Shown: positions 22,295-64,000, numbered from the stretch's first letter. The stretch: 64,000 nucleotides of DNA from a virus (IMGVR_UViG_3300045988_179151), one strand, 5' to 3'. Translations and numbers: made by a program. Notes: a model not told the origin generated them from the sequence alone.

Positions 22295-22337
22295 TGACGT
22301 TCTAGCGGTGTAATAGGTTGAAGATAATACTACCGTT

Positions 22338-22561
22338 ACTCAAAAGTACTAAAATGTAATAATAATAACTTTTAAGATCAATTTTAGAATTTTTCAATTC
22401 AAGGTCTAACGGTTAACCTATTCCACTTCAATTCATCTCATTTCGACTAATGCCAGGCAATAAGACTTGTCATTGAAGTTTCTAATTGAACAAGGCCTTA
22501 AAGGGAGATGCCAAACTGTCTTGCGTTCATACATCTTTATAAGGCTGATTGTTTAAAGAAC
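22338..22561 (-). ncRNA. Putative omega-RNA scaffold of TnpB-like copy 2
   Basis: The reverse complement of 22372-22561 matches 11377-11566 with about 7 mismatches. The sequence diverges beyond ...ctaaaattgatc. Confidence 0.5.
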
Positions 22562-39728: not shown

Positions 39729-40346
39729 ATGCGAAAATATATGAAATTAAGTCAATATGCAAAAAATTTAGGAATTCACTATAAAACAGCGTGGCGACAC
39801 TGGCATGATAACAAGCTCAATGGATATCAAGATCCCGTAACAGGCACTATTTATGTGTTAGATCAAGATACGAATGTGCCAATAGGTTCTCAAATAAGAG
39901 CGATTTTATATGCACGTGTTTCAAGTACAACTAACAAAGCTTCTTTAGACGGTCAATTGGATAGAATGCGTCAATTTGCCGCTGCAAAAGGATACACTGT
40001 TGTCGATGAACGAAAAGAAATTGCATCTGGTTTAAATGAAAACAGAAAACAATTATTACCGCTTCTTTCTCGACAAGATTATGATGTTTTAATTGTAGAA
40101 CATAAAGACAGATTGAGTCGATTTGGTTCCACATATATTGAACAAGCTTTGATTAATAATGGTGTAAAATTAGAAATTATTAATAAAATTGAAAATAAAG
40201 ATAATGAACTTATTGACGATTTTATTTCTATTATTACAAGCTTTTGTGGTCGCATTTATGGACGCAATCGCAAGACTAAAACACAAGAAATCATAAACCA
40301 ACTAGAATTGACACCTGAAAGGACAAAAGATGAAACTAGCGTATAA
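39729..40346 (+). CDS. tnpA: IS607-family TnpA: MerR-like HTH plus serine recombinase/resolvase catalytic domain
   Basis: MKLSQYAKNLGIHYKTAWRHW is the HTH. AILYARVSSTTNKASLDGQLDRMRQFA is the Ser-recombinase active-site region. Confidence 0.7.
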   Translation: MRKYMKLSQYAKNLGIHYKTAWRHWHDNKLNGYQDPVTGTIYVLDQDTNVPIGSQIRAILYARVSSTTNKASLDGQLDRMRQFAAAKGYTVVDERKEIASGLNENRKQLLPLLSRQDYDVLIVEHKDRLSRFGSTYIEQALINNGVKLEIINKIENKDNELIDDFISIITSFCGRIYGRNRKTKTQEIINQLELTPERTKDETSV

Positions 40347-41931
40347 AATCGCATTTCCTGATGAGTTAATAGACACATATGATTTCTTACAAAAAGAATT
40401 CAATCGCGTCTTATCTGATGAATATATGCGTGAATCTATTTTATCAATTGACAATGAGCTTCATCCTGGCAAATATTGGCCACTATTGCGTGATCTCATA
40501 GGTCAAGATACTCAATATAAATGGAAAACAGATAAACGCTTTCCGTCACCATCTTGGTATTTTTGTGCGTTTGCTGAACAAATTCGTCAAATTCACAAAT
40601 CTCAAAAAGAACAACTAGCTCTTTATGACGCCTTACAACGCTTTGATAATAACGATAACGTCGAATTTTATCAATATTGTATGAATAATAGTATTCCATT
40701 TAATAAAGCAAAAGTTAAAAATCTAAAGCGGTGCGATGAACGCCCAGAATTACCGTATTCAGCTACCTTTGTCCTTGATTTTGCCTTTATCAACAGTCAA
40801 GCCGCTAAAATGGTAGATAATACATTCCACTATGCGATTTTCAACGAAAACAATAAACTCATATGGAATCAGTTACCAATTATCTTTCATCAATCAAGTA
40901 AATATCAACCAGGAATGCGTGTAAGTAAACCTAGATTTTCAAAAGATGAAGACGGTAATTATTACGGAGTAGTCTCTTTTGATTTTGAAGAAAGTGTCAC
41001 ATTTGGTGAAAATATTGCTGCTATTGATTTAGGTAAAATTAATTTATATACATTCGCATACATTCGTCCAGATGGTACTTATAGTGACAATTATTTCATT
41101 CATTCAAAAATGATTGAACGGTTAAAACAAAAACTTGAAACATTATATAATGAAAAAGCAATTTTAATCGAAAAAAATAAGCATGTTGACGAACTTTTCA
41201 AGTATTCTGACTATATTCCTGATGCAAGCCTTAAAAAATGGATACTGCGTCAAGGCAAAATAGAACGTTTATCAACAAAAATAACAGCAATTAAAGATGC
41301 TATCAGTGCTGAAATGAGTGCCGAAATAGTTGAATTGTGTCAAAAACACAATTGTTCTACTCTTTTTATGGAAAATCTTAGTTGGTTAGAATCCGTAGGA
41401 GGTAAGTGGAATCATAGTGTTCAACAAGATACCATTGCCTTAAAATGTGCACAAAACGGTATTGCTGTATATAAAGTAAACGCAAAAAATACCAGCAAAG
41501 CACATCCTATTACAGGCGAATTAGGCAAAGAATTAGGCCGAAATATCATTTGGTCAAATGGCGACATACTTGATAGAGATTTTGTTTCTTGTTTAAACCA
41601 AATTCAACGAAAAGGAAAACGTCGTACATCTCATCGACGAATTGAGACAAAACAAGGAATTCAATTAAAATCTCTCCGAGATAAACATCAGCCAACACCA
41701 AAACGCACTAAGCGACAAACTAGTCGACGTTATGAAAATCTAAAAAAACTAGAAAACTTAAAAAATAAAAACACTTCAAGAACTACACAAATGGTGGTAG
41801 TTCTTCCACGAATTAGCAACGATTATCCAGCAACGTGGTCTTGTGTTGATAAAAAGTCAATACAAGAGGGTAACAATTGCATGAGACGTACAGATGTCTA
41901 TAAAAAGTCATACATGTACATCTGCAATTGA
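40330..41931 (+). CDS. tnpB: IS607-family TnpB-like RuvC nuclease (533 aa), no zinc finger
   Basis: IAAIDLGKINLYTF is RuvC-I; TLFMENLSW is RuvC-II; GDILDRDFVSCLNQIQRKG is RuvC-III-like. Its 3' end is homologous to the noncoding region at 255-345. Confidence 0.6.
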   Translation: MKLAYKIAFPDELIDTYDFLQKEFNRVLSDEYMRESILSIDNELHPGKYWPLLRDLIGQDTQYKWKTDKRFPSPSWYFCAFAEQIRQIHKSQKEQLALYDALQRFDNNDNVEFYQYCMNNSIPFNKAKVKNLKRCDERPELPYSATFVLDFAFINSQAAKMVDNTFHYAIFNENNKLIWNQLPIIFHQSSKYQPGMRVSKPRFSKDEDGNYYGVVSFDFEESVTFGENIAAIDLGKINLYTFAYIRPDGTYSDNYFIHSKMIERLKQKLETLYNEKAILIEKNKHVDELFKYSDYIPDASLKKWILRQGKIERLSTKITAIKDAISAEMSAEIVELCQKHNCSTLFMENLSWLESVGGKWNHSVQQDTIALKCAQNGIAVYKVNAKNTSKAHPITGELGKELGRNIIWSNGDILDRDFVSCLNQIQRKGKRRTSHRRIETKQGIQLKSLRDKHQPTPKRTKRQTSRRYENLKKLENLKNKNTSRTTQMVVVLPRISNDYPATWSCVDKKSIQEGNNCMRRTDVYKKSYMYICN

Positions 41932-47153: not shown

Positions 47154-47570
47154 ATGGAAAACAACTTCGAAGATTTTATAAAATATCGCGCAGAATTGCG
47201 TTATAAACACTTCAACAACAATAAATATAAATCTTTAACTGAATTTTGTAACGAGACAGTGACTTGGAATCTATGGGACACTAATTTCTTTAGACTTCTT
47301 TTCAAAATACCCTGCACCACTCCCGATATGCAATCATCAAAATTTGAAGCATTTCTAGAAAATGAACTCGCCCACCCAACTGTTGATTGGATTAACATAT
47401 TCGATTACATCGCCGCCCTTGAAAAACATCCATATTTTAACGAATATCTTGATTCATACATAAACGATTCCGGCTCATTTATACGAGACCCACTTTTCTG
47501 GTCGATTTTGAATAAATATAAAGATGCACTGATCGGACAAATCTCAAATAATCAACAACTGTGGTTCTAG
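47154..47570 (+). CDS. Small protein, family B (138 aa, C-terminal ...NNQQLWF)
   Basis: RBS agaaaggacatcaa. Shares the EL RYK(H/Y)F...DWI..(Y/F)DY... blocks with 47586, 48683, 49491 and 49920. Confidence 0.5.
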   Translation: MENNFEDFIKYRAELRYKHFNNNKYKSLTEFCNETVTWNLWDTNFFRLLFKIPCTTPDMQSSKFEAFLENELAHPTVDWINIFDYIAALEKHPYFNEYLDSYINDSGSFIRDPLFWSILNKYKDALIGQISNNQQLWF

Positions 47571-48682: not shown

Positions 48683-49099
48683 ATGTCAATATTCGAAGAA
48701 CAAATTAGATTATCCGAACAGTTACGTTATCAATACTTTGACAGAGATGGTTTCACAAAAATATCTGATAATACTCGACCCGTCGAGTATATCGAAAGAT
48801 ATGACTCGATTGGATATTTAACCGAACTTACATTCTTCCATGCATATCTTGATTATAACTATAAAACAGATATGAGCCCCAATCATAAATCAACAGCGAG
48901 CGATATAATAAATCTAATCAAAACAAAAAAAGCAAATTCCCATATTGATTGGATAGCCCTCTATGATTACCTGGATAAATTAAAACAAACTCGATGGCGT
49001 AGAGTCATTGACAATGATATCAATGCCGCCCTTGAAGTGTTTGAACCGTTTCGGGGTGAATTAGCCAGCGTTAAAAATAACCAGTCACTTTGGATTTAA
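48683..49099 (+). CDS. Small protein, family B (138 aa, C-terminal ...NNQSLWI)
   Basis: Paralog (IDWIALYDYLDKLKQTRW...FEPFRGELA). Confidence 0.5.
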   Translation: MSIFEEQIRLSEQLRYQYFDRDGFTKISDNTRPVEYIERYDSIGYLTELTFFHAYLDYNYKTDMSPNHKSTASDIINLIKTKKANSHIDWIALYDYLDKLKQTRWRRVIDNDINAALEVFEPFRGELASVKNNQSLWI

Positions 49100-49126
49100 C
49101 AATAACTATAAAAAAGGATAATCAAC

Positions 49127-49474
49127 ATGAACACACAAACAAAACTACAACAATACCTCACAGGTCACGATACAAGTGTTCTTGAAGAACGACTTGAACT
49201 CACACCTGATCTCGGATTTAATTACAAAATCCATTCCGAAGAATCCCTCTATTTCTTAAAAACACCAAGTCTTCAATCCGTTAAACTAATCACAGAAACA
49301 AAAACTGAAAAGGTCACAAAATATTATATCAATATTTTCCAAAAGAATGGCGGTTATATTGCATTTATTGGCGAAACAGACGACCCAACCTCATCCAAAT
49401 TACAAACGACCGTTTACGAAGCCGATTCCTATAATACACTCATCAAAGAAATCTACTACTTAATTTACAAATAA
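49127..49474 (+). CDS. Hypothetical protein (115 aa)
   Basis: RBS aaaaaggataatcaac. No family motif. Confidence 0.4.
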   Translation: MNTQTKLQQYLTGHDTSVLEERLELTPDLGFNYKIHSEESLYFLKTPSLQSVKLITETKTEKVTKYYINIFQKNGGYIAFIGETDDPTSSKLQTTVYEADSYNTLIKEIYYLIYK

Positions 49475-49490
49475 AGAAAGGCGTTAAAAT

Positions 49491-49907
49491 ATGTTAACCT
49501 CCAATGATTATATTGAATTGTCTGACGAATTGCGCTATAAATATCTTGATGTAACTGGATTCGCAACCATATCCGATAATACTAAATTCACTGATTACAA
49601 TGAAGACGGTAACATAATTGGAAATATTACAGAGCGTGCATTCTTGTATTGTTATCTCAATTATGACTATGAAATCGATAAAGACGCCGATTATGACCCA
49701 ACCACAGACGAAGTTATAAGATTAATCAAAACTAGAAAAACAGATCCTTATATCAATTGGACAGCGCTCTATGACTACTTCGATGAGTTAAAACAAACGC
49801 AATGGAGCAAGGCCATTAGTGAGGATATCGACAACGCTCTTGAAGTATTTGAACCATTTCGAGGTGAATTAGCCGGCATTAAAAACAACCAACAACTATG
49901 GATTTAG
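49491..49907 (+). CDS. Small protein, family B (138 aa, C-terminal ...NNQQLWI)
   Basis: Closest paralog of 48683 (INWTALYDYFDELKQTQW...FEPFRGELAGIKNNQQLWI). Confidence 0.5.
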   Translation: MLTSNDYIELSDELRYKYLDVTGFATISDNTKFTDYNEDGNIIGNITERAFLYCYLNYDYEIDKDADYDPTTDEVIRLIKTRKTDPYINWTALYDYFDELKQTQWSKAISEDIDNALEVFEPFRGELAGIKNNQQLWI

Positions 49908-49919
49908 AAAAGGAAGCCT

Positions 49920-50318
49920 ATGTTCAATATTGAAACTACCTACGACCCCATACAAATTACCGAAAAATATAGAAAAATAAGAATCAAATATTTTTCAAAC
50001 CCTAACTATAAAACACTTGCCGATACTGGCTGGCACTTGGACAATCTCGAAAGTCTTTACGAATTCAATTTTTTAAGCGTTCTCATTTTCGGTGGATGGA
50101 ATACCGGTTTTGCGAGAACAACAGAAGAAGTCTGTCATGCTATCAAAAATCATAAAAACTATAAAAACATCAATTGGCGAGCCTACATCGAATATATCGA
50201 CGAAGTTCAAAAAACATTGCCCGTTCGTGAACCGTACGAACTTGAAATCTACAAAGCGGTTAATAGTATCCGTTCTGACTTCGGAATTATCTCAAACAGT
50301 CAACAACTTTGGATTTAG
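49920..50318 (+). CDS. Small protein, family B (132 aa, C-terminal ...NSQQLWI)
   Basis: Paralog (INWRAYIEYIDEVQKT...). Confidence 0.5.
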   Translation: MFNIETTYDPIQITEKYRKIRIKYFSNPNYKTLADTGWHLDNLESLYEFNFLSVLIFGGWNTGFARTTEEVCHAIKNHKNYKNINWRAYIEYIDEVQKTLPVREPYELEIYKAVNSIRSDFGIISNSQQLWI

Positions 50319-51595: not shown

Positions 51596-53374
51596 ATGAT
51601 TCAACCAATCAAACAACAATTCACAGCTAAATATCTTAAGAAAATCCTCGCAACTGAAGCTTCTAACTACAAATATACGGCTCGATGCCTCACGCGAGGA
51701 ATCGTCATCGATCCAATCCAACCCATCTCAAAAGAAACAGCCGAATTACTTATTCATCTATACGGTCTCGACTTAGCAAACGCTAACGCAACATTCTATA
51801 AGACATTCGCGGACCGTGAAAACAAAGATTGGGATGAAGTCGTACTTGACCGACTCATCCACTATGCAACCACTTACGGTGGATTGGCCGAATTCTTCGG
51901 AGGCGTTTATATTCCAAACTCGCCAGAACAAGACATGGTTGACGCATTTTCAACAGTGACACGAATTGAAGTCGTTTCACCTGAAACAATGAAAGAATCG
52001 CTTCAAAATCTTGTTAATCAACCAATCGCTTTCCCATCCGAAGACATCTCTCTACTAGCATCTTTCGTTCACGAACTAGAGCTAAACACGGATGCGATTC
52101 AAAACAAAGAACTTCTCATCTACTTAATCGCAAACTACAACCTTGTGCCTAAAACTCCACAGATGCTGTTACGAGCACTGGTCTTTTTATGCACAGATTC
52201 AACGCAATTGATCAAAAACAAACGATTACGTCGTCGACTATACTATGAGTTAGACGACATGGATTCTAAGACAAAACGTCGTATCCAACAAATTGTTCGA
52301 TCTTACATTGAAACACACGGTGCCCAATCTCTTGCTGACCACTATCGTCCTAACAAAAAACTGTGGTTGATCATTCGCAAAATGGGCTTGCAAAAAGAAA
52401 TCAACCGTATCAAACGTTTGTCAGACAAGAAGCATGTTTCACATGAAACATACACGATCTTGGAAAAAGAACAAGATTTGTCTTCTTTCTCTATCTATCA
52501 ATTGATTAAAGTCTACAATTACGTTTCTGAGCAAAAAGTATTACCTGACGAATATGTTCAAGCCTATCGAATTCGTGACGGTCGAGTTTTCGTTACACAA
52601 AAACAAAAACGATACTACTGGCCTGAACTGATTGAAAAAGCATTAACTGCTATTATAAATGAACTTCGCTCCCGTTTCTCTGAAAAAGAATTGAAGTTCT
52701 ACAATCCAAATACACACATCAATATCAAGATGCCAACATCTGCAAAATCATTCATCGGGCAATACCCAATGTACACATCTATCCAAACCGATAATGCCTT
52801 CCAAGTTGGAATCTACTGGAAAGAACAAACTGATTTGGACTTGCACGCGCACTCGGCCGATGGACGTCACTGTGGATACTACGAAGAATCACTTGAAGGT
52901 TGCGTTCATTCAGGAGACATGACTTGTTTGAACCAAAACAAGCAAGCCGCTGAAGCCATCAAAGTAACCGACGTACATGACGCAACGTTCTCTATCCAAT
53001 TGTATAGCGGAAACCCAACTCCATACAAACTATACATTGCAAAACAATTTGAAGGACACCCAACAAACATCTTGTCTGACGGTCAAGTCATTTTCCAAAC
53101 ACAGGCCATCGCTCAACGCACAGGTGACGTATTTGGGACATGTATCGACAATGAATTCATTCTGACCAGTCTAAAACTTGGTGGAAGAATTCCGAACCAC
53201 GAGCAATCTGAACTCATGATTGATGCTATTGCGCGTAAATCCGCAACTGCGCTCAATCTAGCAACATTTGCGACTATCGTTGGTGCAACTTTTGTCGATG
53301 ATCCTGCCGAAGCAACCCACAACTTCTCTCAAGAAAGTCTGTCATTAGACACCTTTATCGATCTGATGAAATAG
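51596..53374 (+). CDS. Large hypothetical protein (592 aa)
   Basis: RBS agaaaggatattcaacc. No motif recognised. Immediately upstream of the NAD module. Confidence 0.45.
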   Translation: MIQPIKQQFTAKYLKKILATEASNYKYTARCLTRGIVIDPIQPISKETAELLIHLYGLDLANANATFYKTFADRENKDWDEVVLDRLIHYATTYGGLAEFFGGVYIPNSPEQDMVDAFSTVTRIEVVSPETMKESLQNLVNQPIAFPSEDISLLASFVHELELNTDAIQNKELLIYLIANYNLVPKTPQMLLRALVFLCTDSTQLIKNKRLRRRLYYELDDMDSKTKRRIQQIVRSYIETHGAQSLADHYRPNKKLWLIIRKMGLQKEINRIKRLSDKKHVSHETYTILEKEQDLSSFSIYQLIKVYNYVSEQKVLPDEYVQAYRIRDGRVFVTQKQKRYYWPELIEKALTAIINELRSRFSEKELKFYNPNTHINIKMPTSAKSFIGQYPMYTSIQTDNAFQVGIYWKEQTDLDLHAHSADGRHCGYYEESLEGCVHSGDMTCLNQNKQAAEAIKVTDVHDATFSIQLYSGNPTPYKLYIAKQFEGHPTNILSDGQVIFQTQAIAQRTGDVFGTCIDNEFILTSLKLGGRIPNHEQSELMIDAIARKSATALNLATFATIVGATFVDDPAEATHNFSQESLSLDTFIDLMK

Positions 53375-53377
53375 AAA

Positions 53378-53406
53378 AGCTGGCCATTTCGGTCAGCTTT
53401 TTTTAT
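53378..53406 (+). terminator. Rho-independent terminator
   Basis: aagctggcc-atttc-ggtcagctt (1 mismatch) followed by ttttttt. Confidence 0.55.
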
Positions 53407-53498
53407 TTATTAGAAAAAAAAAGAAACTTTTATTTGCATCATCTTCTCATTTATGATATACTTTAATCATAAATAATAATCATGAATAAAAAGGAGAA

Positions 53499-54212
53499 AT
53501 GATTATGAAAAAATCATTAAAACTCTTCGCCACATCCAAGTGGTTTGACCTTTTAGGCGTCGCCCTTGTTGTCGGCATCGCCATCGCATCAGGCTATCTC
53601 AACTCACGCTTAGACCAATTTGTTAATTGGGGCCCTTGGACAGCCTTAGTGCCGTTCGGACTTATCTCCGTCACAAACGTCGGAATTTCCATGTTATCGA
53701 CACGATTTACAGGAAAACTCAGCAAATGGGGAAATTACCTCGGAATTCTAAACACCGTTCTTTCGGGGACCATCGACTACATCCTTGGTAACAAAGCCGC
53801 AATCATCACCTATCCCGTAACTTTCTTGATTTATACGGTTGCTATTCAAAAATGGCAAAAATCGCAAGAAGGTAAACCAAACCAACTTAATAAAACACAA
53901 ACAAAGCTCGTCGCAGTTTTCGCCACAATTTTAGCCTTTGCCTTTGCGTATGGCACTAACTATATCGGTTACGGTGGCAAAATGAACATTCTTGCTTACG
54001 TCACTACGATTGCCTTCGCCCTATCTCTTGTAGCAAATGTCTTTAACGCTTTAAAACTTACAACACAATGGAGCTTCTGGTTGGTCTACAACTTTGTTCA
54101 ACTTGCTAAAGCCAGCGTTCAAGGAAACTTCGCCAATGTCGGTAAATACATCTTCTATATCTTAAATGCGTTCGGTGCGTTATTCGTATGGAATGACAAA
54201 GAAAGGAATTAA
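53499..54212 (+). CDS. pnuC: PnuC-like nicotinamide riboside/NMN transporter (237 aa)
   Basis: About 7 TM segments and Trp-rich motifs (WFDLLG, NWGPW, WQKSQEG, W..YNF). The size and pattern match PnuC. RBS aaaaaggagaaatg. Confidence 0.45.
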   Translation: MIMKKSLKLFATSKWFDLLGVALVVGIAIASGYLNSRLDQFVNWGPWTALVPFGLISVTNVGISMLSTRFTGKLSKWGNYLGILNTVLSGTIDYILGNKAAIITYPVTFLIYTVAIQKWQKSQEGKPNQLNKTQTKLVAVFATILAFAFAYGTNYIGYGGKMNILAYVTTIAFALSLVANVFNALKLTTQWSFWLVYNFVQLAKASVQGNFANVGKYIFYILNAFGALFVWNDKERN

Positions 54213-54215
54213 AAC

Positions 54216-54863
54216 ATGTCATTAAACCCAACCCAAAATTTAGCTATTGACCTATTGATTCTAGCATTTGATAGAAAACATAATACAGTTAAAATCTTCA
54301 CACCTGTTCGTGAAGACTCTAAGAAAAAAGCCTTACCTGGCGTTCTCTTAAAACCTAATGAATCTATTTCAGAAGCGGTTCAACGAACACTGGATACCAA
54401 AACAAATCTCGCGCATCTACGTTACCGCCTTCAAGAACTGCCGGCTCAAACCAATCCAAATCGTGACCCGAGAGGACACGTTGTATCTGTTCCCATTTTA
54501 GTATTTATTTCAGAACCTTTTGAACTATCAAACGGTTGGTCTAACTTCGAACCAAATCTAGACCTCGATTTTGACCACACCGAAATGGTCAACAAGGCCT
54601 TTAACATTTTGGCTCAAAACTGGGACCGATATCCACTGCCGCTTCTTCTCGTAGGTGAACGTACCACTCTTGAGGAAACCAGAGATCTACTGGCGCATTT
54701 CCAACCATACTATTCTAAAACCTTGCCGTCAAACCTACGTCAAATGACCTTTTTCCAAAACTTTTTAGAAGAAACAGACGACTTCATGGCATCAAATAAG
54801 AAGGGCCGTCCGCCTAGATGCTATAACGTTTTAACTGACGAAATCAAACCACTATATACCTAA
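54216..54863 (+). CDS. Hypothetical protein, possibly a degenerate Nudix-fold (215 aa)
   Basis: LPGVLLKPNESISEAVQRTLDT only loosely matches a Nudix box. No NMNAT (H/T)xGH motif. Confidence 0.3.
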   Translation: MSLNPTQNLAIDLLILAFDRKHNTVKIFTPVREDSKKKALPGVLLKPNESISEAVQRTLDTKTNLAHLRYRLQELPAQTNPNRDPRGHVVSVPILVFISEPFELSNGWSNFEPNLDLDFDHTEMVNKAFNILAQNWDRYPLPLLLVGERTTLEETRDLLAHFQPYYSKTLPSNLRQMTFFQNFLEETDDFMASNKKGRPPRCYNVLTDEIKPLYT

Positions 54864-54877
54864 AGGAGAACGCCCCC

Positions 54878-55759
54878 ATGTTACTATTAAACAACGCGCA
54901 AGTACACTTCATCGATTTTCCTAACAAGGAACGCCGTCTTGACCTGCCAAGAGAGCTCGTGAACGATATGAATACCGTTATCTGGCATTATGACAATGAT
55001 GGTTCCATCTTTGAATTGCTTTTGCTCGAACAAGTTATGTTCCAATTACAAAAGCCATACGATCTTGTCATTGGATACATGCCCTATTCTCGTATGGACC
55101 GCGTTCAAGAAAACACTACGGCGTTTTCGTTAGAGTTACTATGCAAGCTTCTTGCGAATAACACGCTAATGCTCAACAAAGTCCTCGTATCAGATCCTCA
55201 TTCACCTGTTACGTTAGCGATATTCCATAAATATGGCATTCCAGCTGACGAATTAAACTATTCCCTTGCAGATACCATTATGGATTACGCTAACGTAAAC
55301 CTTGAAAATGCATGGATCGTATTCCCCGATAAAGGTGCGGCATTGCGTTATGATGAGAGCAAATATCCGAATGTCATCATTTGTGAAAAGACCCGTGACT
55401 TCACAACCGGACGTATCACAAACATGACTGCGCACATTCACAAACAAACGACAACGCCCGATAGTGATGCACCGCTTATTATCATTGACGATTTGTGCTC
55501 ATACGGTGGCACCTTCATCCGTGCAATTGATGCTGTTAAAGAACTAACTGACGTAGCATCTACAAATGCATGGCTCATCGTTACTCATGCAGAAAAAGCT
55601 ATCGACGAAGGTTCCGTCATGAATACATTTAACAAGGTATTCTGCACTGATTCAATTGCCACGCCACACGGAGCCGTGAATATGTCCGAATCATCATTCG
55701 ACAACACGCAACAAGTCTACGTCAAAGCCGTCCAAGATATCGTAAACGAAATCGTCTAA
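54878..55759 (+). CDS. Ribose-phosphate pyrophosphokinase (Prs) homolog; candidate ADPR-pyrophosphate synthetase (Adps) of a NARP1-type NAD+ reconstitution pathway
   Basis: IGYMPYSRMDRVQE...VSDPHS aligns with Prs (IPYYGYARQDRK...ALDLHA). IIIDDLCSYGGT is the PRPP-binding loop (cf. ILIDDIIDTAGT). Confidence 0.55.
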   Translation: MLLLNNAQVHFIDFPNKERRLDLPRELVNDMNTVIWHYDNDGSIFELLLLEQVMFQLQKPYDLVIGYMPYSRMDRVQENTTAFSLELLCKLLANNTLMLNKVLVSDPHSPVTLAIFHKYGIPADELNYSLADTIMDYANVNLENAWIVFPDKGAALRYDESKYPNVIICEKTRDFTTGRITNMTAHIHKQTTTPDSDAPLIIIDDLCSYGGTFIRAIDAVKELTDVASTNAWLIVTHAEKAIDEGSVMNTFNKVFCTDSIATPHGAVNMSESSFDNTQQVYVKAVQDIVNEIV

Positions 55760-55783
55760 TCAATTCGAAAAAGGAACAAACAC

Positions 55784-57313
55784 ATGATTACACCAATTTA
55801 TCTATCTACTGACTTTTACAAGCTTTCTCACCGCGAGCAATACCCAAAAGGCACAACTACTGTTTATTCAACATTAACGCCACGGTCTAATAAATACGCC
55901 CCCTGGTCAGATGAAATTGTATTCTTCGGTTTGCAATACTTCATCAAGGAATACTTGATTGAACGCTTCAATAAAGAATTCTTTGAAGTTCCAATTGAAG
56001 AAGTTGTAACGCTCTATACAAGCTTTATTCAAAATACACTCGGAAAAGAAACCGTAGACGTTGACCATCTCGTAAAACTTCACGAATTGGGTTATTTGCC
56101 ACTTAAAATCAAAGCTCTTCCTGAAGGAACACTCGCTCCGATGCGATGTCCTGTCATGACGATTGAAAACACGCATCCTGACTTCTTCTGGTTGACCAAC
56201 TTCATCGAAACTATTCTTTCGACAACTATCTGGCGACCAATTACATCAGCAACACTAGCGTATCAATACCGTAAAGTGCTTGATGACTATGCATTGAAGA
56301 CAACCGGCTCAACCGCGGGGGTTGAATTCCAAGGTCACGACTTCTCTCTTCGAGGAATGTCATCTGAACAATCCGGTATAACGTCAGGTATGGGGCACTT
56401 AACCTCATTCCAAGGAACGGATACAATTCCAGCCATCTTCGGTGCGCATAAATACTATAATGCCCCTCTTGATTTCACAACCGGTGCATCGATCTCTGCC
56501 ACAGAACATAGCGTTATGTGCGCTTACGGTAAAACCGATGAACTAGAACTCTTTAAACATCTTCTCGTAGACGTTTATCCAACAGGATTATTCTCAGTCG
56601 TATCCGACACATGGGATTTCTGGAAAGTTGTTACAGAATACTTGCCAGCTCTTAAAGATATTATCATGGCGCGTGACGGCAAACTGGTTATTCGTCCTGA
56701 CAGTGGTGATCCCGTGGCTATTGTTACAGGAACCGCTATCAACGGAACTACACCTGAAGAAAAAGGTCTTATCGAATGTCTTTGGGATATCTTTGGCGGA
56801 ACCGTTAATGAACAAGGCTATAAAGTTCTCGATCCGCATATCGGAGCTATCTATGGCGACTCTATCAACCTAGACCGCGCCAAAGCTATTTCAGAACGTC
56901 TTGAACAAAAAGGCTTCGCTACAACAAACATTGTTTTCGGAATTGGTTCTTTCTCTTACCAATACCATACCCGAGACACCTTCGGATTTGCCGTCAAAGC
57001 GACTGCCGCAACTGTTAATGAGGAAGAACGCATGCTCTTTAAAGATCCAAAAACTGACGATGGTACGAAACGCTCACAACGCGGACGCGTTGTTGTCGCA
57101 CAAAAATCAGATGTGTTACATGAAAACCCAGACTTTGATTTTACAACATTAACGGGTGATCAATCACAAAATGACTTGCTATGGAAAGATGGGCTTTACG
57201 AAGCTGAAGAACATTATTCAGAGTGGAATGCGTTACGACCTGTCTTTTTAGATGGACGAATTCTCGTCGACGAGTCACTTGAAACAATTCGTAAACGTAT
57301 TAAATCCGCTTAA
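55784..57313 (+). CDS. Nicotinamide phosphoribosyltransferase (NAMPT/NadV) homolog; candidate nicotinamide ADPR transferase (Namat) partner of the Prs-like gene
   Basis: N-terminal LSTDFYKLSHREQYP matches the NadV/NAMPT signature (TDSYK.SH..QYP). 509 aa is a typical NAMPT size. RBS aaaaggaacaaac. Confidence 0.6.
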   Translation: MITPIYLSTDFYKLSHREQYPKGTTTVYSTLTPRSNKYAPWSDEIVFFGLQYFIKEYLIERFNKEFFEVPIEEVVTLYTSFIQNTLGKETVDVDHLVKLHELGYLPLKIKALPEGTLAPMRCPVMTIENTHPDFFWLTNFIETILSTTIWRPITSATLAYQYRKVLDDYALKTTGSTAGVEFQGHDFSLRGMSSEQSGITSGMGHLTSFQGTDTIPAIFGAHKYYNAPLDFTTGASISATEHSVMCAYGKTDELELFKHLLVDVYPTGLFSVVSDTWDFWKVVTEYLPALKDIIMARDGKLVIRPDSGDPVAIVTGTAINGTTPEEKGLIECLWDIFGGTVNEQGYKVLDPHIGAIYGDSINLDRAKAISERLEQKGFATTNIVFGIGSFSYQYHTRDTFGFAVKATAATVNEEERMLFKDPKTDDGTKRSQRGRVVVAQKSDVLHENPDFDFTTLTGDQSQNDLLWKDGLYEAEEHYSEWNALRPVFLDGRILVDESLETIRKRIKSA

Positions 57314-57323
57314 CCATACAATA

Positions 57324-57355
57324 GACCATGAGCCTTGCTCATGGTCGTTTTTTCC
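57324..57355 (+). terminator. Rho-independent terminator
   Basis: gaccatgagc-cttg-ctcatggtc followed by gtttttt. Confidence 0.7.
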
Positions 57356-58156: not shown

Positions 58157-59777
58157 CTATAAACTACTCTTTGCAAGAGACTCTTGGTATGTCAATAGTC
58201 CATTATCATGACAATAACGACGATGACATTCTTCAGAAGCCTCCTGAACCTGACATCTAACAGTACAACTCGTACTGCTTTTTGTATATACTGGAAACTC
58301 CAACATCAGAGAACGTCTCTGATTAATAACTCTTCCAGCATTCACATCAGCATTACAAGAGAAATAACACTGCTGACAAACAAAATCTTTTTGAGATTTA
58401 CGATTATGTTTAGACACATAATGACAACGTGAACATTCTTGACTAGTATAAGCAGGATTAACCGCAACAATTTGAATCCCATATTGCTCTTCTAAACGAG
58501 CTAATTTAGCGTTAACAACAGAACGATAGGTACGACCAATTAAACGATTCATTTGTTTAGACAGTCCTGCTGCTCTAAAATCAAGTTTTTCAACCACAAA
58601 AACGCCAACATTCTTTTTCGCTAATTTGTTTAAAATGCGACAAATCTCATTTTTAAAATACGATTTGATACGTTGTTGCAATTGATTATAACGTTCATTT
58701 GTTGACAATTTAATAGACTGTTTTTGAAGCTCTTTAGTCAATTGCAAAAGCTCTTCATCCCAAATTTTTAATTTGATAAATGATGACAATCCATGGCGTT
58801 CACCGTCACTTGTTGTGAACATTGCAACCATGCCAAAATCAAGCCCAATACTTTCTGTTGAAGAACGTAACGGGGCTTTGTCATAACCAATAATAGCTGA
58901 AATTGTACATGTTTTATCAGTCAATCGAACTTGTACGAACGGTAATCGTTCACCTTTTTTAAGGCAATCATCCAAATAAGGATTACGTTTTAAAGGCAAG
59001 TAAATCGGTTTTCCTTTTTGCAAGGTTGATAATTTCAAAAAATAATCAAAATGTGAGGCGTTTTTTTGAAACTTCTAAAACCGCTACTTTTTCATCTAAT
59101 TTCAAAGTTTTGACACGTTTCAATTGTGGAAAACGAATACGTTTTCGGGCACGCTTAATCAATTTACGCATAAAAAAGAGAATATCTGATGAAACAGGTA
59201 ACGTTACATTTGCTTTATGCGCCTTAGATGGAATTAATAAGTCACCTTCTTTTGTCTGATGCCATGTTAAGTCAACAGACGAATGATGCCAAAGATGACA
59301 CTTATTAATACGATAACAAGTAGCCAAAAAAAGTTCATCAACAATAAATGAATGGCCTAAAAAAGAACGAACGACATCTTCAAGTTTTGTTAACCAGGAT
59401 AAATAAATCTCTAACGTTTGTTTATAACAGGCTTGAACATAACGCGCAGATAAAGGTGTTTGAACAGCATCTCTTTCAATTGCTTTCAATTGTTCTTCTA
59501 ATGACTGTTTAGGCGTTTGTCCTTTTTCAAGCTGATTTGCATAACGTTTTTTACATGACTCAAATAATCGAACATAATCTTCTTTTGTTTGATATGGTTT
59601 AGCGTTTGTAAAAGTTAACTGCTCATTGTCCCGAACAAATCGTAAATCAATATCTGATAAGAAATAAGCCATTAAATCAGAATAAGGAGTCAATAAATCA
59701 TTGGCAACATCAATTTTACCAGCATTAGCTAATGAAGGTGTCGGTATTGTTGCGATCCACTTTGTTGATTCGACCAT
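58157..59777 (-). pseudogene. tnpB: Large TnpB-like gene (about 540 aa) split into two ORFs by a +1 frameshift in an A7/T7 homopolymer (plus-strand T7 at 59060-59066). RuvC and zinc finger are intact
   Basis: C-part has IGLDFGMV (RuvC-I), VVEKLDF (RuvC-II), NPAYTSQECSRCHY...CQQCYFSCNADVNAGRVI (ZF plus RuvC-III). With A6 the N-part reads ...LEVSKNASHFDYFLKLSTLQKGK..., continuous into the C-part. Confidence 0.6.
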
Positions 59778-60896: not shown

Positions 60897-61361
60897 AAAA
60901 TGGAAATCATTGAGGACTAATCATCTGCAACCAAAATACAAATATTTCATGGAAATCAAAACTTCATGACGACGATGACGATGTTGCGTTACTGTTAGGC
61001 GTCTTCGACACCATGGAAGCCGCTGAAAAAATAGCAAGCGAAACTTCAACCATCAACATCGTACAACAAAACGAACCATGCGAGCTTGCACTAGGATAAA
61101 GACTTAATATAACCTATACTCTTTCAAAGATTAACATCAAAAAGAAATTAAAAATAAAAATTGTCCAACAACGGCTCCAATATGGTACAATAATATTGTG
61201 AACGTCGAGAGACATCCACAACGATAGTAAAACAGACATACCGCCAACCTGATATATCATCACAAACAAAGAAACTTGGGACTGCATGCTTGTTTTACTG
61301 TCACCAACTAAAAACACTCGCGAAGGACAACCCGTATCCCGCGATAGAAAAGGAGTTAGCT

Positions 61362-62135
61362 ATGCTAACAAATATTGAAGTCGTCAAGAAAGACGGTCGT
61401 GTAGAACCGTTTCGAATGACAAAACTATTGACAGCTTTGCAAGCTGCCGCATTAGACATCCACTACACACTCACAGATGATGAACTCAAACAAATTGAGA
61501 ACGAAGTGTATAAATACATCGACGCTCAATCCGTTCTTCTTCCGCAAGACTTGCACTTTACCGCTATTGAAGCGGCTCGCAAAGTCAATGCTGATGTAGC
61601 AAAAGCTTACGAAGACTATCATAAGCAAAAACAATCGTTGAAGGTTTCTGACCTCAATCGATTGAAAGTTGTATCGAAGACCGGAATCGTGTCCGACTTC
61701 AACGCCAAACACATCGAAAACGCCTGTCAAAAGGCCGCAAAATCAATCGGTAAAGAATTGACCGATGAGCAATTGCACGATGTTTTGTCTGAAGTAGCTC
61801 ACTGGCTCGATACATCTAAATACCATGACACTGTTGCAACGAGTGATCTCCACCGTTTCGTCATGGGAGGCTTGAAAAAGGTTGATTTGCCGACCTATAC
61901 AGCCTATAAGCGTTACTGGCAAGCTCAACGTGACCGAGCGACCGCATTTCATGAATTGCAAAATGAGGCGGAAGGCTTGCGCTTCGGTTCATACAATGAA
62001 AATGCCAACAAAGATTCGCAAGTGATTTCAACTAAATCAGCGCTCATCAACGAAATGACCATGAAGAAACTCATGCGTCACGTCTTGAATCCTGAATGGT
62101 TGACGGCTCACGAAGAAGGATACATTTATATCCAT
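61362..62135 (+). CDS. nrdD: Anaerobic ribonucleotide reductase NrdD (class III), exon 1: ATP-cone plus start of catalytic domain
   Basis: RBS gaaaaggagttagct. MLTNIEVVKKDGRVEPF is an ATP-cone. ...YNENANKDSQV...LTAHEEGYIYIH aligns with T4 NrdD ...LNENANKDSRV...KAHESGIIHVH (recalled from memory). Confidence 0.7.
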
Positions 62136-62495
62136 GAACAGATTGTGGCCTAGTTCGGTAACGAACTATGGAAAAACCGCGTTAACCCGTGCCGAAAGGC
62201 TGAAGGGGTGTCGTTCCTACGGCACAGTAATTATAGGAAATGATAATGAAAGGAACGGCTAACAGGGAACGAAAGAATCCTGTGCGACTTATGATATTTC
62301 ATAAACGTTAATCGACTATCGAAAGGATATCTATGAATAATTGGTTCATAGAGAATAACTGAGTAGAGTAGCCCCTGGTGAAATAAACAGGTTCGTCATC
62401 GTCTGAGATTAGGACGAGATAAATCGTGTAATAGCCAAAATGCGGCATCCTATGTAACGACTAGGATGATGATATAGTCAGCTCACACCCAAGTG
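62136..62495 (+). ncRNA. Putative group I intron 1 (360 nt, no ORF)
   Basis: Stop codons in the nrdD frame. Upstream exon ends in U; intron ends in G. Shares the blocks ggaaatga.aa / ggctaacagggaac / aatcctgtg with intron 4. Confidence 0.55.
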
Positions 62496-62693
62496 GATTT
62501 GGGTGACCTCTACAAAGACACATTTAACTGTGACCTCTTCGACTTAGAACACTTGATGAAGGATAAAGAACACGAAGACGGGTTCTATGCCTTCCGAATC
62601 AACAACAAAACGACACATGAACCAAAACACGTGTCATCAGCATTTGATATTTTATCAAGCGTAACCATCGCAGCGTCTGGAAACCAATTTGGT
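62496..62693 (+). CDS. nrdD: nrdD exon 2
   Basis: DLGDLYKDTFNCDLFDLEHLMKD..GF..R..N......PKHVSSAFDILSSVTIAASGNQFG aligns with T4 DIDYSPALPFTNCCLVDLKGMLENGFKLGNAQIETPKSIGVATAIMAQITAQVASHQYG. Confidence 0.65.
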
Positions 62694-63096
62694 AAGAAAC
62701 GACCCGCGTATTCAGTAATGAGTGCGTGCTCCTACATTTAATGCTTGCAACACCCTAAAGTCTCAATCACCTAAACAGTAAGTGGAAACGCTAAGCTGAA
62801 TGGTTGTCAAAAGACGGAAAAAACTATTGAGAATGAGGTATGCTGAAATAAAAGCCACATATGTGGTGCTAACCCTCGCAAACAATGGGCATTTAGCAGG
62901 GACGTGACCTAAAGAGAAATCCATGGCACACCCCCAACGATTATCTCCTTGAGGGAGAGTAAATCCGTAAGTCACTGACGGAAGAAAAATGTAGCTCCTA
63001 TACATATAGGATGAAGATTTAATCTGAACTTGTCTGAAAGGACAAGCCGTGATTCGCTCACGCTAATAGATTGACGCTCTATTAGGAACATATTTG
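62694..63096 (+). ncRNA. Putative group I intron 2 (403 nt, no ORF)
   Basis: Lies between exons that align contiguously to T4 NrdD. Upstream exon ends ...ttggt (U); intron ends ...atatttg (G). Confidence 0.5.
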
Positions 63097-63300
63097 GGTT
63101 TTACGGTGAACCACATCGATAGTACTTTAGCACCGTATGCTGAAAAATCATATCAGCATTATTTAAACGATGCTAAAGAATACGGTATTGCAGATGCAGA
63201 ACGTTATGCAACCGATAAAACACTCAAAGAAATCAAACAAGGCGTTCAGAGCTATACATACGAATTAGCTCAAACGCAGAACGCACTTGGACAAACGCCT
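63097..63300 (+). CDS. nrdD: nrdD exon 3
   Basis: GFTVNHIDSTLAPYAEKSYQHYLNDAKEYGIADAERYATDKTLKEIKQGVQSYTYELAQTQNALGQTP aligns with T4 GTTFANVDKVLSPYVKRTYAKHIEDAEKWQIADALNYAQSKTEKDVYDAFQAYEYEVNTLFSSNGQTP. Confidence 0.65.
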
Positions 63301-63637
63301 TAAGTAAGGGGCCAACGAAAGTGAACCTATCAAGGGTGTCTTCGAAAAGAAGGCTAACGGGCAAAGCAGAAATAAGATAAAAATGTAACCTCAACCGAGG
63401 ACGAATATGCTGATAAGAGAGCCTACAACCAGAAATGGTCAAAGGTAATCCCGTGCGAAGCTCTTAATATCCAATAAGAGAACGTGTAACGACTATTCCC
63501 GTAGTGGGTGGTGAAAGTCCACAACAGAAGTACGGCTGCTATTGATACGCAGTGGGTGAGAATCCCTTAAATGGAAGCGCTCAGGTCACTGTACCTAAGA
63601 TATAGTCTATGCCTTTATGAAAATAAAGGACAACATG
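63301..63637 (+). ncRNA. Putative group I intron 3 (337 nt, no ORF)
   Basis: Starts taagtaagggg. A possible P1 pairs exon ...gccu with ggggc. Contains ggctaacgggcaa and aatcccgtgcg blocks like intron 1. Ends in G. Confidence 0.5.
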
Positions 63638-63862
63638 TTTACAACCATCAGCTTTGGGTTGGATACAAGTAAATGGGGACGTGAAATCACACGCGCCATC
63701 CTAGAAGACCGCATGTCACCAGACAACCGCGACGTCTTCCCGAAACTTGTCTTCATGTATCGAAGTGAAATTAACGGTGATCCAGATTCACCAAACTATG
63801 ACTTATACAAACTAAGTCTCGAATGTTCATCTAAGAAACTCTACCCTAAAATAATTGGGGCT
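63638..63862 (+). CDS. nrdD: nrdD exon 4
   Basis: FTTISFGLDTSKWGREITRAILEDRMSPDNRDVFPKLVFMYRSEINGDPDSPNYDLYKLSLECSSKKLYPKIIGA aligns with T4 FVTITFGTGTDWTERMIQKAILKNRIKGLGRDGITPIFPKLVMFVEEGVNLYKDDPNYDIKQLALECASKRMYPDIISA. Confidence 0.65.
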
Positions 63863-64000
63863 TAAGAGGGTGACCTCTTTCGAATAACTATGTGAACGGC
63901 TAACAACCGGTGTCTAATTACCGACAAGGAATTGTAGGAAATGACAACTAATAATTAGGCTAACAGGGGAACTACACTGTACAATCCTGTGGGAAGCCGT
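63863..64000 (+). ncRNA. Putative group I intron 4 (5' part; the window ends)
   Basis: Starts taagagggtgacc. Shares gtaggaaatgacaa...ggctaacaggggaac...aatcctgtggg with intron 1. In-frame stop right after exon 4. Confidence 0.45.

Follow-up and report, generated by a model that had tools for sequence, protein, structure and literature searches.

The gene block at positions 53,499 to 57,313 raises the question of whether a phage carries a pathway that restores NAD+ during infection and, if so, how such a pathway would be controlled. The window, i.e., the whole analysed stretch of 64,000 nt, belongs to a large, lytic-looking phage from a human-associated metagenome, the host of which is probably Gram-positive. 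The sequence-only reading had placed four co-directional genes here, and all four open reading frames were confirmed on the plus strand in the order pnuC-nrtR-adps-namat, separated by gaps of 3, 14 and 24 nt. The same gene block was found in more than 60 independent metagenome contigs, so that the arrangement cannot have arisen by chance, and a megablast search of the module against GenBank phages yielded no near-identical phage DNA. The four genes form a single operon, bounded by a promoter (53433-53462) and a terminator (57324-57346). The promoter scan identified the former as a sigma-70-type element on the plus strand (TTTGCA, 18 nt, TATACT with an upstream TG), and the relatives possess TTGACA-N17-TG-n-TATAAT or TACAAT at the same place. 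The operon end is marked on the plus strand by an intrinsic-terminator-like hairpin (10 stem pairs, 6 of them GC, and a T run after the stem). No Rfam match to an NAD+ riboswitch (pnuC or nadA motifs) was obtained 5' of pnuC, where chance matches to the terminator were the only hits.

A 592-aa protein encoded immediately upstream (51596-53374) had been suggested to belong to the module. The open reading frame is real and encodes a TerD-domain protein; it is followed by a second terminator-like hairpin on the plus strand (53373..53403, 13-pair stem, then a T run), which occurs with identical sequence 5' of the promoter in the relatives L153 and L154 and likely terminates the 592-aa gene and insulates the operon. 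Relatives of types A, B and C lack the protein, which adjoins NARP1 solely in the window's own clade, and its homologues at 34-46% identity are not located near NARP1. Its own terminator and its absence from types A to C exclude it as a conserved member of the module; as the protein abuts adps in relative L164, a loose link within one clade is possible.

The third gene (54878..55759, plus strand) encodes a member of the Prs superfamily and, according to profiles, tree and motifs, a candidate ADPR-pyrophosphate synthetase (Adps). The DPH and IIIDDLCSYGGT motifs predicted earlier are both present, while the predicted pattern PY.Y.R.DR was slightly off, the actual first motif being MPYSRMDR. The protein matched phrog_619 (8e-56) but scored below every curated Prs cut-off; on the Prs model TIGR01251 it reached 69.9 bits (cut-off 113), compared to 75-123 bits for Adps of known lineage and 422.7 bits for E. 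coli Prs. Its identity is 34% to FADO Adps versus 19% to E. coli Prs and does not exceed 34% to any sampled GenBank phage Adps. In the tree it grouped with the FADO and Kayvirus Adps at 100% bootstrap, congruent with the Namat tree; as this tree held a single true Prs, the split between Adps and Prs rests on the profile scores. Lysine K171 is invariant in an alignment of eight Adps and E. coli Prs and, by position in this alignment, which did not include the SpβL1 enzyme, probably corresponds to the essential K162 of SpβL1 Adps. No Adps structure exists. The start of namat lies 24 nt past the adps stop, an adjacency shared by 97% of the Adps clade. Together, the data suggest that the Prs homologue is a member of the Adps clade, separate from housekeeping Prs, and it is predicted to pyrophosphorylate ADPR rather than ribose-5-phosphate.

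The fourth gene (55784..57313, plus strand) encodes a member of the NAMPT superfamily and a candidate nicotinamide ADPR-transferase (Namat), as indicated by PDB match, motifs and tree. The protein contains TDFYKLSHREQYP, matched the crystal structures of SpβL1 Namat (PDB 9W5X/9W5W) with an E-value of 8.5e-173, compared to about 1e-72 for human NAMPT, and shares 60% identity with FADO Namat. The published Namat-only SCH motif, GSXΦXΦXΦTRD, reads GSFSYQYHTRD, including F390 and Y394, where NARP2-type enzymes have GGGLLQ..RD in the same alignment. At the SCL, where the third residue is R, K or Y and the fourth stacks if the third is K or Y, the protein carries K37-Y38 of the Bas63 type, aligned to R40-V41 of SpβL1. 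Furthermore, 17 of the 19 NAD+-contacting residues are identical, and the Nampt-like catalytic core occupies invariant columns (F187, R190, D213, H242, R304 and D306, equivalent to F189, R192, D215, the catalytic His, R306 and D308 in SpβL1 numbering). In a small neighbor-joining tree (11 sequences, none of them a cellular Nampt; 200 bootstraps) the protein fell into the Adps-linked clade at 100% bootstrap, apart from NMNAT-linked Nampt. The NAMPT homologue is thus a predicted Namat that would favour ADPR-PP over PRPP and form NAD+ directly.

The claim that the adjacent Prs and NAMPT genes match the NARP1 pair was borne out by the Namat motif, the PDB match and the Prs-model scores, and the phylogenetic placement that the sequence-only reading had named as its own check put both enzymes into the Adps and Namat clades at 100% bootstrap. 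By these sequence criteria, the pair is NARP1 (Adps/Namat) and not a housekeeping Prs with a canonical NadV. A NARP2 assignment (Nampt plus NMNAT) was rejected, as clade and motif are wrong and a NadM/NadR homologue is missing; likewise NARP3 (PnuC plus a NadR-like protein), as no NadR-like NR kinase or NMN adenylyltransferase is encoded near PnuC. A phmmer search with E. coli NadR and Ccr10 NadM retrieved nothing at an E-value of 1 in the window or in the flanks of the relatives L003, L005, L016 and L100, and no NMNAT homologue occurred in the window or in the flanks of the four relatives.

The second gene (54216..54863, plus strand) had been described as a degenerate Nudix-like open reading frame. 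The Nudix box REUXEE is replaced by RTLDTK, and the catalytic glutamates are gone in all variants; what had been missed is that the product has a winged helix and belongs to a family of transcription factors. Sequence, profile and fold matches were exclusively to NrtR-family regulators: PDB 2fml (3e-15, in two segments, residues 8-104 and 116-205), AraR 5bs6 (3e-9), a profile-based match at 1e-18, NCBIfam NtrR (4e-5) and, as top Foldseek matches, AraR, 2fml and Shewanella NrtR (3gz5/6/8), with AraR and Shewanella NrtR matched over the full length, the predicted structure being of moderate quality (pLDDT 62.9, TM about 0.5). The RDPRG..S segment of the family is retained, and the recognition-helix and wing motifs, PSN[LF][RK] and GR.P, are invariant among variants at 50-100% identity. 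The curated score of NCBIfam NF050029 was not reached (23.1 bits, cut-off 400), the Pfam NUDIX model gave no match to the window's protein at an E-value of 0.5, and Pfam NrtR_WHD stayed below threshold, with a best E-value of 9e-4 and in two of 18 relatives only. Based on the NF050029 and NUDIX scores, the protein is a distant family member and not an equivalog. Judged by sequence and fold, the "degenerate Nudix" open reading frame is an NrtR-family repressor, consisting of a non-catalytic Nudix sensor and a C-terminal winged helix.

Verified GenBank phage records did not contain any NrtR homologue. Four other records did, of which three were marked UNVERIFIED and, upon inspection, had neither Adps nor Namat nor PnuC within 6 kb of the NrtR homologue; the fourth is an uninspected fragment of 4 kb. 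A prophage or bacterial origin of the phage NrtR was rejected, a first scan of genome contigs having found no relative. NrtR homologues occurred at 43 of 80 bacterial Namat loci, in 29 of these cases within 400 nt.

The first gene (53499..54212, plus strand) encodes an accessory PnuC-family transporter of the vitamin-B3 type. Its likely start is the second ATG at 53505, which is favoured by ribosome-binding-site spacing and is also the start in the ENA record. Family membership is given by PF04973 (58.1 bits, cut-off 27.3) and phrog_1880 (4.5e-12), and the 237-aa protein contains 8 Trp and 6-8 hydrophobic segments. No match was obtained by phmmer against PDB chains of the PnuC family or, at an E-value of 1e-3, by tblastn against GenBank phages. 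The score on TIGR01528, the NR-specific PnuC equivalog model, was below the cut-off (30.3 bits versus 42.45), so that nicotinamide riboside is a putative substrate. Relatives of types A and B have the gene, those of types C and D lack it, and it was found at none of the 80 bacterial Namat loci. The proposal that precursor import is coupled to the pathway was weakened by the missing NadR or NMNAT homologue in the window and the flanks of four relatives and by the dispensability of PnuC in several lineages. Coupling is plausible but biochemically incomplete, since NARP1 uses nicotinamide and ADPR and not nicotinamide riboside.

To what the regulator might bind is suggested by the promoter itself. 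An inverted repeat, TCATTTATGAT-N8-ATCATAAATAA, covers the -10 element and start site at 53447..53476 (no strand assigned) and, as the near-palindrome TTATTTATGAT-N8-ATCATAAATAA, overlaps the -10 element. Its perfect core, TTTATGAT-N8-ATCATAAA, occurs once in the 64-kb window when up to two mismatches are allowed. A third half-site copy, TAATCATGAAT, is located at 53477..53487 on the plus strand, 13 nt downstream of the right arm; in the relatives, two to four direct copies recur every 13 nt in the interval from the -10 element to the ribosome-binding site. Of 43 distinct relatives, 42 retained the repeat in their upstream regions, irrespective of the first gene (pnuC or nrtR) and of the context further upstream. 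Across these 43 relatives, conservation of the right arm reaches 90% or more, compared to about 45% for the -35/-10 spacer. Both L153 and L154 have perfect 11-mer arms, and a symmetric exchange of flanking bases (A..T to C..G) separates L003 from the window. Type C relatives have direct repeats downstream of the -10 element instead of a palindrome. Published NrtR operators lie 5' of the regulated genes as palindromes of some 21 bp with the canonical core GT-N7-AC (PMC2330246), which the 11-N8-11 repeat lacks. Conservation of the repeat may in part be due to the -10 element; the pairing of repeat and NrtR is thus that of a candidate operator with its putative repressor.

The best explanation of the locus, to which as a whole we assign a probability of about 0.6, is an early, four-gene NARP1 operon with its own NrtR repressor and a PnuC transporter. 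Host RNA polymerase would start transcription from the sigma-70 promoter; after cleavage of NAD+ by host NADase defences of the TIR, SIR2 or SEFIR types, Adps would pyrophosphorylate ADP-ribose with ATP, and Namat would combine the product with nicotinamide to yield NAD+. As NrtR builds up, it may occupy the inverted repeat that covers the -10 element and start site and turn the operon off. ADP-ribose is formed by the defence, used by Adps as its substrate and established as the effector of NrtR in bacteria, and should hence release the repressor, so that the pathway would be on when, and for as long as, NAD+ is being destroyed. PnuC, co-regulated in most relatives, would in addition import a pyridine precursor, presumably nicotinamide riboside, which would have to be processed by host enzymes, e.g., NadR or a nucleoside phosphorylase. 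The role of ADPR as inducer is drawn by analogy from bacteria, where Shewanella NrtR binds the prs-nadV operator and is released by ADPR (PMC2330246). The union of NARP1 with a repressor family that senses ADP-ribose indicates that counter-defence may be switched on only upon defence. The full sensing circuit, in which NrtR detects ADP-ribose, or a similar product of an NADase or of Thoeris, as a sign of NAD+ destruction by the host and only then de-represses NARP1 and the importer, is a tentative proposal, with the odds slightly against it. The rationale for tight control is weakened by the argument of Osterman et al. that the cost of NARP1 is low when no defence acts.

Several other explanations deserve consideration. 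The operon might serve plain NAD+ salvage, a PRPP synthetase, a Nampt and an imported precursor raising NAD+ for phage replication in an NAD-limited host, under an NrtR with the homeostatic role known from bacteria. PnuC and NrtR are classic components of bacterial salvage regulons (PMC2330246), Namat enzymes retain Nampt activity on PRPP, and bacterial copies may have housekeeping roles. However, the adenine-clamp motif defining ADPR-PP use is intact, the Prs homologue fails all curated Prs cut-offs and groups with Adps, SpβL1 Adps makes no PRPP, and neither the window nor the flanks of four relatives provide an NMNAT or NadR to complete the NMN route, which renders salvage quite improbable.

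Even if the operon is a regulated NARP1, the effector of the repressor could be NAD+, NaAD or a cyclic-ADPR isomer made by Thoeris, or the repressor might need no ligand; it would then act as an early-infection timer. Autoregulated early operons are common in phages, effectors vary within the NrtR family, as exemplified by AraR with arabinose, and the Nudix pocket has strongly diverged and gave no Pfam NUDIX match. We regard this as unlikely, as ADPR is the substrate of a co-transcribed enzyme, the RDPRG..S segment is preserved, and no ligand dissociated the two NAD-regulon NrtRs studied as effectively as ADPR (PMC2330246). Alternatively, the repeat may belong to the architecture of the promoter or be recognised by a different phage or host factor, with NrtR acting elsewhere, e.g., on host NAD genes; its left arm overlaps the extended -10 element, and the motif is unlike published NrtR motifs (PMC2330246). 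This appears highly doubtful, since conservation is highest downstream of the -10 element, in a region not constrained in promoters, the site is the sole one of its kind in 64 kb, and it always accompanies nrtR despite changes in first gene and upstream context. In addition, in L164, which lacks nrtR, adps follows the upstream gene by 10 nt, leaving no room for promoter or repeat.

If the NARP1 operon is indeed under an ADPR-responsive NrtR, a phage-borne sensor of the defence's breakdown product would constitute a simple feedback whose cost is paid only under attack, while phage counter-defences of the NARP kind have so far been described as unregulated enzyme pairs. The compact promoter-operator-repressor cassette could then report NADase immunity. 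It would also explain, as substrate-induced NARP1, the puzzle raised in 2008 of why bacteria keep an additional prs next to nadV under the control of a repressor that responds to ADPR, and suggests that bacterial 'prs-nadV' operons are in many cases modules for NAD+ reconstitution induced by ADPR. The finding thereby joins two literatures, on the NrtR regulon (nrtR-prs-nadV, 2008) and on NARP1 (2024-2026).

The nrtR-prs-nadV operon reported in 2008 is the counterpart of the bacterial nrtR-adps-namat clusters, which are common (43 of 80 loci). Like that operon (Rodionov et al. 2008) and bacterial NARP1 (Lan et al. 2026), the present locus combines a Nudix-type repressor with a Prs paralogue and a NadV-like gene; unlike them, it resides in a lytic-looking large phage, its NrtR is distant from bacterial NrtRs (hmmsearch E-values of 1e-8 to 1e-15), its candidate operator lacks their GT-N7-AC core, and PnuC, found at none of the 80 bacterial loci, is usual in the phage operon. 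Adjacency of pnuC and nrtR also occurs in the streptococcal nadR-pnuC-nrtR arrangement. As in NARP3 (Yan et al. 2026), a PnuC-family transporter is co-transcribed with genes for rebuilding NAD+, but the window has no NadR-like kinase or adenylyltransferase. With phage NARP1 (Osterman et al. 2024; Lan et al. 2026) the locus shares adjacent adps and namat in this order, the selectivity-clamp motif and catalytic residues of Namat, and the Adps-type divergence from Prs, SpβL1 and FADO being the nearest characterised relatives of the pair. Other NARP1 loci also contain extra genes that widen or tune substrate supply (the RyDEP glycosidase; phage phosphatases versus aRES); those accessories are enzymes yielding linear ADPR, whereas here they are a regulator and a transporter. 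As noted by the sequence-only reading, transporter and Nudix-like gene distinguish the locus from published two-gene NARP1. Given an NrtR-family repressor and a candidate operator on the promoter, the main departure is regulation and not only import: published phage NARP1 is an unregulated two-gene operon, to which the present one adds the repressor, usually PnuC, and a conserved promoter repeat. The NARP1 core is thus already known, and the locus is a newly seen, regulated variant of it.

The sequence-only reading had described the region 53499-57313 as a block of four genes, and four plus-strand ORFs, separated by gaps of only 3, 14 and 24 nt, indeed span it: pnuC (53499-54212), an nrtR-like gene (54216-54863), adps (54878-55759) and namat (55784-57313). 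A sigma-70-type promoter (TTTGCA, 18 nt, TG-n-TATACT; 53433-53462) precedes the block, and terminator-like hairpins follow the stop codon of the upstream 592-aa gene (53373-53403) and the last operon gene (57324-57346). The promoter and flanking hairpins indicate that the four genes form one transcription unit and that the 592-aa gene (51596-53374) belongs to another.

The same reading had assigned the two enzyme genes to NARP1, in which Adps converts ADPR to ADPR-PP and Namat joins the latter with nicotinamide to give NAD+, and both assignments held. The best PDB matches of the NAMPT homologue were the structures of SpβL1 Namat (9W5X and 9W5W, E 8.5e-173), with human NAMPT at about 1e-72, and the protein is 60% identical to Namat of phage FADO, whose NARP1 has been demonstrated genetically to defeat DSR2. 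Lan et al. described GSXΦ1XΦ2XΦ3TRD as a signature restricted to Namat; its aromatic residues hold the adenine of ADPR-PP in a clamp. This signature occurs in the window protein as GSFSYQYHTRD, whereas in the same alignment the enzymes of Vibrio nt-1, Klebsiella KP1 and Caulobacter Ccr10, all from phages without Adps and the last encoded next to NadM, carry GGGLLQ..RD. Among the listed NAD+-contacting residues 17 of 19 are identical, the differences being R40 to K (followed by Tyr) and A362 to S; in the variable loop, K37-Y38 aligns with SpβL1 R40, which is the Bas63-type arrangement. In a neighbour-joining tree the protein was placed in the Adps-linked clade (100% bootstrap) beside FADO and Staphylococcus Kayvirus.

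The Prs homologue matched the phage family phrog_619 (8e-56); no Pfam match was obtained at E 0.01, and it scored below every NCBIfam Prs cut-off. Against TIGR01251 it reached 69.9 bits (cut-off 113), close to the Adps proteins of FADO, Kayvirus, ICP1, Felixounavirus, mycobacteriophage and Pakpunavirus (75-123 bits) and far from E. coli Prs (422.7 bits). The protein shares 34% identity with FADO Adps, compared to 19% with E. coli Prs, and the invariant lysine is retained as K171, which is taken to correspond to the essential K162 of Adps, a protein for which no structure exists. The Adps tree mirrors that of Namat, as expected of a jointly inherited pair; since it included a single cellular Prs, the separation from housekeeping Prs rests on the profile scores. 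Adps has also diverged far more rapidly than its partners, with 47-55% identity to the same relatives in which Namat and PnuC show 83-88% and 81-93%, respectively.

The second ORF had been read as a degenerate Nudix protein. The degeneracy was borne out, but the winged helix of an NrtR-family regulator had been missed. A phmmer search of the PDB identified the Enterococcus Nudix and winged-helix protein 2FML (3e-15, in two segments spanning both domains; 1e-18 in a profile search) and the Bacteroides regulator AraR (3e-9). Foldseek with an AlphaFold model of moderate confidence (pLDDT 62.9) placed AraR, 2FML and Shewanella NrtR (3GZ5, 3GZ6 and 3GZ8) on top. The sole NCBIfam match, to the ADPR-responsive repressor NtrR (4e-5), was far under its cut-off, and the protein also remained under the Pfam thresholds for NUDIX and NrtR_WHD. 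Judged from these matches, it is a distant member of the NrtR family. Among variants of 50-100% identity the Nudix box REUXEE is replaced by RTLDTK, RTLETK or RAISTK, so that the catalytic glutamates are absent; no variation was seen in an RD.RG..S segment, FDH, the helix motif PSN[LF][RK] and the wing motif GR.P. Because the glutamates are lost while the helix and wing motifs are maintained, the protein should bind ligand and DNA without hydrolysing the ligand.

A candidate operator for such a regulator, TCATTTATGAT-ATACTTTA-ATCATAAATAA (53447-53476), spans the -10 element, its left arm overlapping the extended -10 sequence, and an additional copy, TAATCATGAAT, follows 13 nt downstream. A scan of the 64-kb window located a single perfect copy of the core TTTATGAT-N8-ATCATAAA and no other site with up to two mismatches. 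From 60-odd related loci that were gathered, 50 supplied the sequence preceding the first gene of the operon, and 43 of these sequences were distinct. ATCATAA was present within 100 nt of the start in 42 of the 43; the right arm and second copy were conserved at 80-99% per column, compared to about 45% for the -35/-10 spacer. The repeat accompanies the operon with either pnuC or nrtR in first position and regardless of the upstream context. Its arms are perfect 11-mers in two related loci (L153 and L154), and in another (L003) the outer position of both arms is changed symmetrically relative to the window. In L164, which lacks nrtR, the 10-nt gap between the upstream gene and adps leaves no space for this promoter or repeat. 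The GT-N7-AC core of most published NrtR sites is absent from the window repeat.

Five arrangements were observed among the relatives. The majority (type A) have the order pnuC-nrtR-adps-namat. In type B, adps and namat are separated by two additional ORFs, of 198 and 325 aa (L003, 7545-9137; also L132-L136). This insertion occurs in one lineage; neither ORF has a Pfam match, and weak paralogues of the 198-aa protein are encoded at other positions in related phages. In type C, nrtR-adps-namat without pnuC, the palindrome gives way to direct repeats, which lie downstream of the -10 element. In type D the 592-aa gene is followed by nrtR-adps-namat (42-50, 89 and 94% identity to the window for NrtR, Adps and Namat, respectively), and in L164 a 592-aa homologue directly precedes adps-namat, without nrtR and pnuC. 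The stable core is nrtR-adps-namat, and PnuC is accessory. The window itself looks like a mosaic recombinant of types A and D (53430-54877, compared with L153/L154 and L016): its pnuC and nrtR resemble those of type A relatives (80-93%), and type D relatives are the ones resembled by adps and namat (89-94% protein identity) and by the promoter as far as the -10 element. One of the junctions lies inside the common operator repeat.

PnuC-coupled precursor import had also been suggested. The transporter part of this proposal stands, as the protein passes the Pfam PnuC threshold, although not the cut-off of the NR-specific equivalog model; a coupling to NARP1 is suggested by its co-transcription with the enzyme genes. 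Neither a tblastn search of GenBank phages (E 1e-3) nor a search of the PDB gave a match. PnuC proteins are facilitators that rely on metabolic trapping. Searches of the window and of the fetched flanks of its relatives revealed neither an NR kinase nor an NMN adenylyltransferase, so any benefit of PnuC would come through host enzymes or genes elsewhere in the genome. The 592-aa protein, considered a possible module member, rather appears to be a neighbour. Sequence searches against Pfam, PHROG, NCBIfam and the PDB gave no match for it; homologues of 57-96% identity lie directly upstream of NARP1 (window, L154, L156 and L164), those of 34-46% identity lie among unrelated genes, and type A, B and C modules are flanked by other genes. 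We read its position as local synteny, and a functional link to NARP1 is improbable.

The window is part of ENA metagenome contig ERZ27263377 k119_39668 (105,864 bp), and its relatives reside on contigs of 100-300 kb, among which are viral contigs of IMG/VR and one of 291 kb that was obtained in a human saliva study. The majority of window ORFs matched nothing in PHROG or Pfam; among the remainder are an RNA ligase/kinase, a helicase, a D5-type primase, NrdD and several TnpB-type transposases. A 1586-aa protein (4103-8863) that carries an LPXTG cell-wall anchor besides six G5 domains points to a Gram-positive host and, together with Antigen I/II-type LPXTG adhesins on related contigs L159 and L160, suggests a possibly oral streptococcus-like one, with phage-driven surface remodelling. 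The load of IS200/IS605/IS607-type elements is unusually high for a phage. Two full-length IS605-orfB-I RNAs (Rfam RF03065; 11393-11606, plus strand, 189 bits; 22329-22545, minus strand, 195 bits) each lie directly 3' of a 445-aa ORF without Pfam or PHROG match (10039-11376, plus; 22562-23899, minus), and these pairs may be two copies of a divergent TnpB-like nuclease and the guide RNA belonging to it. Further TnpB/Cas12f-like ORFs occur at 58157-59777 (minus), 19438-20982 (minus) and 39729-41931 (plus); one immediately follows the NAD+ operon and is paired with a 243-aa ORF without assigned function, and another adjoins a serine recombinase. The window also encodes a 499-aa SPFH/Band 7 flotillin-like protein (31272-32771) and unannotated tandem paralogues of about 132-138 aa with a common NNQ[SQ]LWI ending (48683-50318, probably also 47154-47570). 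nrdD, for anaerobic ribonucleotide reductase, is seemingly in several pieces with short ORFs between them (61290-64000; L001, 17147-20648), which suggests introns, inteins or decay.

The enzymatic core very probably works as published for NARP1. Regarding its control, NrtR would autorepress the operon through the promoter repeat, ADPR would relieve this repression, and PnuC would be co-induced with the NARP1 genes; this model draws on operon anatomy, conservation and bacterial precedent, and we consider the odds for it about even. For the explanation as a whole we estimate a probability of roughly 0.6.

The precedent comes from Rodionov et al. 2008 (PMC2330246), who described nrtR-prs-nadV in Shewanella, Acinetobacter, Chromobacterium and Cytophaga, found that Shewanella NrtR binds the prs-nadV operator and is released by ADPR, and left the dedicated second prs unexplained. 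A pattern scan of species-representative genomes yielded at least 585 stretches resembling Namat. Of the 80 best loci, mainly from Flavobacteriia and Cytophagales with some Enterobacteriaceae, 74 had the Namat motif, 65 a homologue of Adps and 43 one of NrtR within 8 kb (for 29 of the latter, within 400 nt); none had PnuC. Homologues of Adps occur in 1317 GenBank phage records and those of Namat or Nampt in 2043, and the NrtR-like protein gave tblastn matches in only four of 50,697 phage records. The three inspected, all UNVERIFIED, lack Adps, Namat and PnuC within 6 kb; the remaining record is a fragment of 4 kb. The metagenomic regulator lineage is common (197 clusters at 90% identity).

The Adps/Namat pair is a further member of the known NARP1, and the novelty lies in the putative phage-borne repressor, the candidate operator and the transporter. 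Compared to NARP3, in which phage PnuC and NadR are able to counter SIR2-HerA, the operon holds the transporter half only. The bacterial nrtR-adps-namat loci share the arrangement of the 2008 nrtR-prs-nadV operons, and the literature examined contained no statement linking these to NARP1, the sole co-mention of NrtR and NARP1 being a reference-list entry. Seen from NARP1, the prs of nrtR-prs-nadV would most simply be an Adps and the operon would be induced by its own substrate, a tie to the 2008 NrtR regulon that may offer an additional insight.
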